Assembly: GCF_003334385.1 (NCBI RefSeq)
Contig: NZ_QOWN01000003.1
DNA from: Escherichia coli
Lineage (GTDB): Bacteria; Pseudomonadota; Gammaproteobacteria; Enterobacterales; Enterobacteriaceae
DNA: 64,000 nt
Direction: 5' to 3' (one strand)
Under the pieces are notes generated by a model. It did not search any database. It had not been told where the DNA came from and saw only the letters and a list, made by a program, of their open reading frames with translations. Shown here one piece after another: positions 38,844-38,866 of this stretch; the first letter of the stretch is position 1; each line of letters opens with the position of its first letter. The translations under genes and the position numbers were made by a program.

Positions 38844-38866
38844 ACTTTAGTTACAACATACTTATT
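38844..38866 (-). other. terB: Replication terminator site TerB (Tus binding site)
   Basis: Minus strand reads AATAAGTATGTTGTAACTAAAGT, exact match to the 23-bp TerB sequence as I recall it, 11 bp upstream of the tus start. Confidence 0.85.

Follow-up and report, generated by a model that had tools for sequence, protein, structure and literature searches.

The tus locus and the TerB site

The window (the whole 64-kb stretch of Escherichia coli DNA that was analysed) carries the gene order rstA-rstB-TerB-tus-fumC, with rstA lying beyond rstB on the upstream side and fumC lying downstream of tus in convergent orientation (Table 1). The product of tus is a DNA replication terminus site-binding protein of 309 amino acids, and a search against the PDB showed it to be 100% identical, over residues 1-309, to the Tus protein of entries 1ECR, 2I05, 2I06 and 2EWJ (E = 1.5e-208). 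The true start of the gene is the ATG at position 38833, which gives a reading frame of 309 codons. A GTG start at position 38845 was rejected as a mechanical upstream extension of the open reading frame, the annotation of K-12 beginning 10 bp past TerB. The intergenic region between rstB and tus consists of 75 bp, of which TerB occupies positions 43-65: the stop codon of rstB (38909-38911) is located 42 bp upstream of the site, and 10 bp separate the site from the ATG of tus. This 10-bp region between tus and TerB is also given in PMC8707476.

Table 1. Features of the rstB-TerB-tus locus and replication-related motifs elsewhere in the window (window coordinates).
Feature	Coordinates	Strand	Basis
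tus, DNA replication terminus site-binding protein (309 aa)	37904..38833 (stop codon included)	-	Tus PDB match; K-12 annotation
TerB, 23-bp Tus-binding site	38844..38866	-	Exact unique match; published oligonucleotide; K-12 1684226-1684248
C(6), cytosine opposite G6 of TerB	38861	+	Plus-strand base read as C
Candidate tus promoter	38866..38894	-	Hexamers read by eye
rstB, upstream neighbour of TerB	38909..40210	-	ORF list; K-12 annotation
KOPS, pointing to high coordinates and dif	11226..11233	+	Motif search
Second KOPS, same orientation	32936..32943	+	Motif search
matS, perfect palindrome inside ydgJ	19079..19091	.	Single match; equivalent to K-12 1,704,002

Read on the minus strand, the site is AATAAGTATGTTGTAACTAAAGT, numbered from position 1 (38866) to position 23 (38844), and it matches the published TerB sequence at all 23 positions. 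The reference was taken from oligonucleotides of PMC4499146 that are described as TerB-bearing (CAAGTCACCACGACTGTGCTATAAAATAAGTATGTTGTAACTAAAGTGGTTAATATTATGGCGCGTT). These oligonucleotides are identical to the minus strand of the window not only across the 23-mer but also across its native flanks, for 18 to 26 bases on each side. The 23-mer is unique in the 64-kb window when up to 3 mismatches are permitted, and no TerB match was found in any of 100 dinucleotide-preserving shuffles; by arithmetic, an exact 23-mer would turn up by chance ~2e-9 times in 64 kb when both strands are counted. A search of the window with a degenerate Ter-core pattern returned TerB as the sole match with 0 mismatches, the core at positions 8-19 (ATGTTGTAACTA) and the G6-C6 pair being intact. 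No second Ter site was identified in the window with this pattern: the remaining matches were fifteen with 2 mismatches, and the 16 matches observed against 12.95 expected are attributable to chance.

It had been claimed in the initial annotation that an exact TerB lies on the minus strand just upstream of tus, and the complete, unique match located 10 bp before the tus ATG confirms this. The comparison with the Ter consensus that had been proposed there as a check likewise reveals no mismatch in the core, G6 included. The site is therefore a member of the Ter family, namely TerB itself, every sequence-level defining feature that was examined being present.

Relationship to E. coli K-12 MG1655

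Positions 1-60025 of the window correspond to a single block of the MG1655 chromosome, which runs in reverse complement from 1,723,092 down to 1,663,068 at 99.973% identity. The differences along this block amount to 14 substitutions and 2 single-base indels, all lying outside the stretch from rstA to fumC that holds rstA, rstB, TerB and tus. Since the 60 kb are near-identical and the region of the site is fully identical, the exact match at TerB was inherited along with the K-12-like backbone and does not constitute an independent signal.

Two further observations were made along this backbone. An extra A relative to MG1655 is present at position 57904, in the intergenic region between dmsD and clcB. 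The coding region of rsxC contains a 96-bp tandem repeat (13998-14519; 5.4 copies, 91% matches), which is also found in K-12 (1,708,575-1,709,095).

Position of the window relative to the replication terminus

The three relevant sites of the K-12 chromosome are dif (1,590,750-1,590,777), TerC (1,609,157-1,609,179) and TerB (1,684,226-1,684,248), of which TerC is the innermost barrier. TerB is placed 75.0 kb further out than TerC, at a distance of 93.4 kb from dif. Expressed in K-12 coordinates (1,663,068-1,723,092), the window extends from 54 to 114 kb outside TerC and from about 72 to 132 kb from dif. By this mapping it lies outside the innermost interval between TerA and TerC, and 53.9 kb still separate the dif-proximal end of its host part from TerC.

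A search of the 64-kb window with up to 3 mismatches did not find dif. The GC skew of the plus strand is +0.023 in the host part, where no change of sign occurs and the cumulative curve climbs throughout, with no turning point. The negative skew seen past ~56 kb was considered as a replication switch and rejected, as it coincides with the ynf genes and with early prophage genes on the minus strand. KOPS motifs (GGGNAGGG) were found twice on the plus strand and not at all on the minus strand, giving no KOPS switch in the window, and Chi sites also show a plus-strand excess (6:3). Together, skew, KOPS and Chi fit a plus strand that serves as leading strand for the fork encountering TerB at its permissive face.

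A GC-skew analysis over a larger contig, also suggested in the initial annotation, was run on 240 kb of K-12 and located the switch at dif, with no change at TerB. Within these 240 kb, every KOPS up to 1,590,627 is on the plus strand and every KOPS from 1,593,758 is on the minus strand. The cumulative G-C curve shows a plateau at ~1.55-1.585 Mb, after which it declines without interruption from dif on.

One matS site (GTGACRNYGTCAC) was identified in the window, and none in its prophage part, whereas ~0.015 would be expected in the window by chance (arithmetic). Sites of this type are confined to the Ter macrodomain, where they occur about once per 49 kb (PMC3603311). The window is located within the Ter macrodomain, and so in the terminus region in the broad sense, but it does not contain the terminus itself. 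The earlier placing of the window "at the replication terminus" is accordingly correct for the region, as matS, KOPS and skew indicate, and too strong for the terminus proper, given that dif and a polarity switch are lacking and that the window falls outside TerA-TerC.

A different layout, in which TerB would be the innermost barrier and the actual point of fork fusion, would put the window at the terminus proper after all. It has a precedent in some Shigella, where dif lies between terC and terB and terC is inverted, making TerB an innermost barrier (PMC8347550); relocation of tus-TerB has also been described, in IAI39 or some Shigella (PMC8347550). It would also be compatible with the position of TerC and dif of this strain beyond the window, and with the presence of a prophage between TerB and the place where TerC would be expected. 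We regard this layout as very improbable here, however, as the 60 kb are colinear at 99.97% with K-12, in which TerC and dif lie 75 kb and 93 kb beyond TerB, respectively. The window is moreover devoid of dif and of a skew sign change in its host part, both of its KOPS point in the same direction, and in K-12 it is at dif that KOPS and skew switch, with nothing changing at TerB. In addition, the fork trap and its layout are highly conserved across E. coli phylogroups (PMC8347550).

With TerB placed outside TerC, the site serves as a landmark which fixes the window in the left replichore, ~75 kb outside TerC and ~93 kb from dif (K-12 coordinates). It gives the direction of replication, from low to high window coordinates, and corrects the idea that the terminus itself is within the window.

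Orientation of TerB and its predicted role as a fork barrier

TerB and TerC are on the same strand in K-12, and TerB, TerC, TerF, TerG and TerJ have been described to arrest the clockwise fork (PMC8707476). Arrest occurs when unwinding by DnaB at the non-permissive face frees C(6), which enters the cytosine pocket of Tus (PMC8707476). TerB is one of six Ter sites found to be bound by Tus in ChIP-seq (PMC8707476); it ranks as a strong, lock-forming site with strong binding in such experiments, and its ectopic insertion in the non-permissive orientation is reported to be impossible (PMC8707476, PMC8347550). Among the arrest sites TerC has the highest usage, with TerA and TerB next (PMC8707476, PMC8347550), and forks mostly fuse at TerC, with TerB acting as a back-up barrier (PMC8707476).

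The site in the window is in the trap orientation: position 1 of TerB and the non-permissive face both look toward high coordinates, and dif lies beyond the high-coordinate end of the window. The side on which dif lies was deduced from the colinearity with K-12, the 2:0 distribution of KOPS and the positive GC skew of the plus strand.

Binding of Tus and polar arrest are known from the literature for the identical sequence in K-12 and BL21, and may be expected to operate here in the same manner. Tus, encoded 10 bp downstream, would bind the 23-bp TerB. A fork arriving from the high-coordinate side, having already passed dif and TerC, would unwind TerB and break the G6-C6 pair, upon which the freed C6 of the plus strand would dock in the cytosine pocket of Tus, locking the complex and arresting DnaB. 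Conversely, the oriC-derived fork of this replichore, travelling from low to high coordinates, would meet the permissive face and displace Tus. The lock and the frequency with which it is engaged are, like binding, those described in the literature. Because TerC is 75 kb nearer to dif, TerB would probably serve as a second-line barrier against forks that break through TerC, a status that rests on the 60-kb colinearity with K-12.

The candidate tus promoter and predicted autoregulation

PMC8707476 and PMC8347550 place TerB in the promoter of tus, where it mediates autoregulation by Tus, and cite Roecklein et al. 1991 and Natarajan et al. 1991 for the repression of tus via TerB. From reading the minus strand of the window by eye, we infer a candidate promoter composed of a -35-like hexamer (TGGTCA, 38894-38889), a 17-nt spacer and a -10-like hexamer (TATAAA, 38871-38866). 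The last base of the latter is position 1 of TerB, because of which the transcription start of tus is predicted to fall inside TerB and the footprint of Tus. Both candidate hexamers are invariant across seven aligned E. coli lineages. A scan of positions 38600-39100 for consensus promoters called none over TerB, as the -10 of this candidate ends in A. The sole promoter-like match of the scan is inside tus, and the sole terminator-like match, with a weak stem, is inside rstB.

As an operator, TerB would overlap the -10 and start region of tus in such a way that bound Tus occludes the promoter and represses the gene (negative autoregulation), a mechanism which is drawn from the literature. We consider it almost certain that this is TerB on the chromosome of a K-12-like E. 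coli, with a dual role as a polar fork barrier and as the operator of tus.

It could be argued that TerB is essentially an operator of tus only, with a barrier that seldom or never comes into play in vivo. Fork fusion normally takes place at TerC or before it, and a fork gets to TerB only after breaching TerC (PMC8707476); the site shares bases with the candidate -10 and start region; and the placing of a Ter site beside tus is ancestral across Enterobacterales (PMC8707476). Against this, the literature describes Tus-dependent pausing of forks at TerB as significant under natural conditions, and the site is in the trap orientation with respect to replication polarity, which a pure operator would not need. 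An operator function to the exclusion of the barrier is most unlikely.

Conservation of TerB across E. coli

The segment tus-TerB-rstB was identified in 5,424 of 5,426 complete E. coli genomes, and the name tus of the K-12 annotation is likewise shared by 5,424 genomes; no match to the segment was found in the remaining 2 of the 5,426. One record possesses a plasmid copy of the segment.

The K-12 form of TerB was recovered from 2,361 of the 5,426 genomes (~43%) using a 35-bp megablast query. The interpretation of this figure as loss of the site was rejected, since alignment of sampled lineages showed that the polymorphisms T7G and A2T break the 28-base seed. Among seven divergent lineages aligned, including six other than the K-12 form, TerB varies at positions 2 and 7 only, with G6 and the core at positions 8-19 invariant. 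The natural variants begin AATAAGGATG... (T7G) and ATTAAGGATG... (A2T plus T7G), and occur in O121, O145, APEC, UTI and other strains. Variation limited to these two positions is the pattern that would be expected of a constrained Tus site, and it accords with the fork-trap conservation described in PMC8347550.

Although a number of Ter-like sequences of E. coli, namely TerF, H, I, J, K, L, Y and Z, are now classed as pseudo-Ter (PMC8707476), a chance or non-functional 23-mer can be discounted for the present site in view of its 23/23 match (~2e-9 by chance, 0/100 shuffles), its canonical place beside tus, the invariance of G6 and the core across lineages, and the inclusion of TerB among the six sites bound in ChIP-seq.

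In E. coli KTa005 (NZ_CP147084.1), an element of the ISEcp1 family with a downstream gene for an MBL-fold hydrolase is located ~27 bp upstream of TerB, immediately before the promoter region of tus. The sequence is broken at the -35-like hexamer of tus, and rstB is not annotated in the next 2.5 kb of the locus. This insertion may possibly represent a natural perturbation of tus expression.

The uidB lesion and the ynfG prophage

The uidB gene (28830-30202, plus strand) differs from that of MG1655 by a 1-bp deletion and two substitutions within 6 bp (29254-29259). The resulting frameshift divides the gene into two ORFs, 28830-29300 and 29192-30202, of 156 and 336 amino acids, respectively. The exact allele was found in only five complete E. 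coli genomes, those of 58-3, 81, A65EC, HCP6S3_I2 and HCP30S3_I2.

Colinearity with K-12 stops at position 60025, inside ynfG, where a lambdoid prophage (60025-64000) removes approximately the first 25 codons of the gene. In the prophage, an integrase gene (60078-61241, minus strand) precedes exo, bet and gam. Sequence identity of this segment is 98.6% with Escherichia phage PhiR5_2 and ~94% with the Shigella Stx phages 75/02 and POCJ13. The junction between ynfG and int is shared by 89 of the 5,426 genomes, with O104:H4 outbreak strains among them. The closest prophage-bearing genomes (EC2 and SW0716xx) match at 100% up to position 63924, and the last 76 bases (63925-64000) diverge, as expected of mosaic lambdoid early regions.

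The initial annotation had linked both lesions to the terminus region as a place where prophages and deletions accumulate in E. coli. Both are real and do lie in that region, and the background statement is fair in that prophage density is known to rise toward the terminus in E. coli (PMC3603311); the link of the lesions to this location, however, is correlative only. Location does not explain the lesions, because the prophage occupies a specific and recurrent att site in ynfG and the uidB lesion is a 1-bp frameshift, which is unlike a deletion of the terminus type. What TerB provides for both is context, through the position and replication direction that it assigns to the window.

As the prophage is situated between TerB and the expected TerC, the interval between these two sites would be longer in this strain. 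That it might alter termination, for example by adding DNA free of matS or of a different KOPS polarity between TerC and TerB, or by accompanying a rearrangement that turns TerB into the working innermost barrier, appears highly doubtful, and no sign of prophage-altered termination was seen in the window.

Comparison with known systems

TerB and tus rank with the best-characterised parts of the E. coli chromosome, and in this strain these textbook elements are base-for-base those of K-12. TerB of MG1655, upstream of tus (b1610), has the same 23 bp, the same rstA-rstB-TerB-tus-fumC neighbourhood, the same 10-bp spacing and the same Tus. While the site itself is the same, the chromosome described here differs from MG1655 in that a lambdoid prophage breaks ynfG 21 kb toward the dif side.

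TerC resembles TerB in its strand and polarity, in its GTTGTAAC core and in G6, and both stop the clockwise fork. It differs in being 75.0 kb closer to dif, in being the most used arrest site, in lying outside the window and in having no association with tus. The T7G variant of TerB, common in other E. coli lineages, carries the base that TerC has at position 7.

The Ter1 site of the type I fork trap, described in Edwardsiella, Cedecea and other Enterobacterales (PMC8707476), is likewise located directly upstream of the tus start and possesses the conserved C6 and core; presumably, it too combines the roles of barrier and operator. In contrast to TerB, Ter1 is one of two sites only, which are innermost and flank dif, whereas TerB of E. 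coli, here by colinearity, lies behind TerC.
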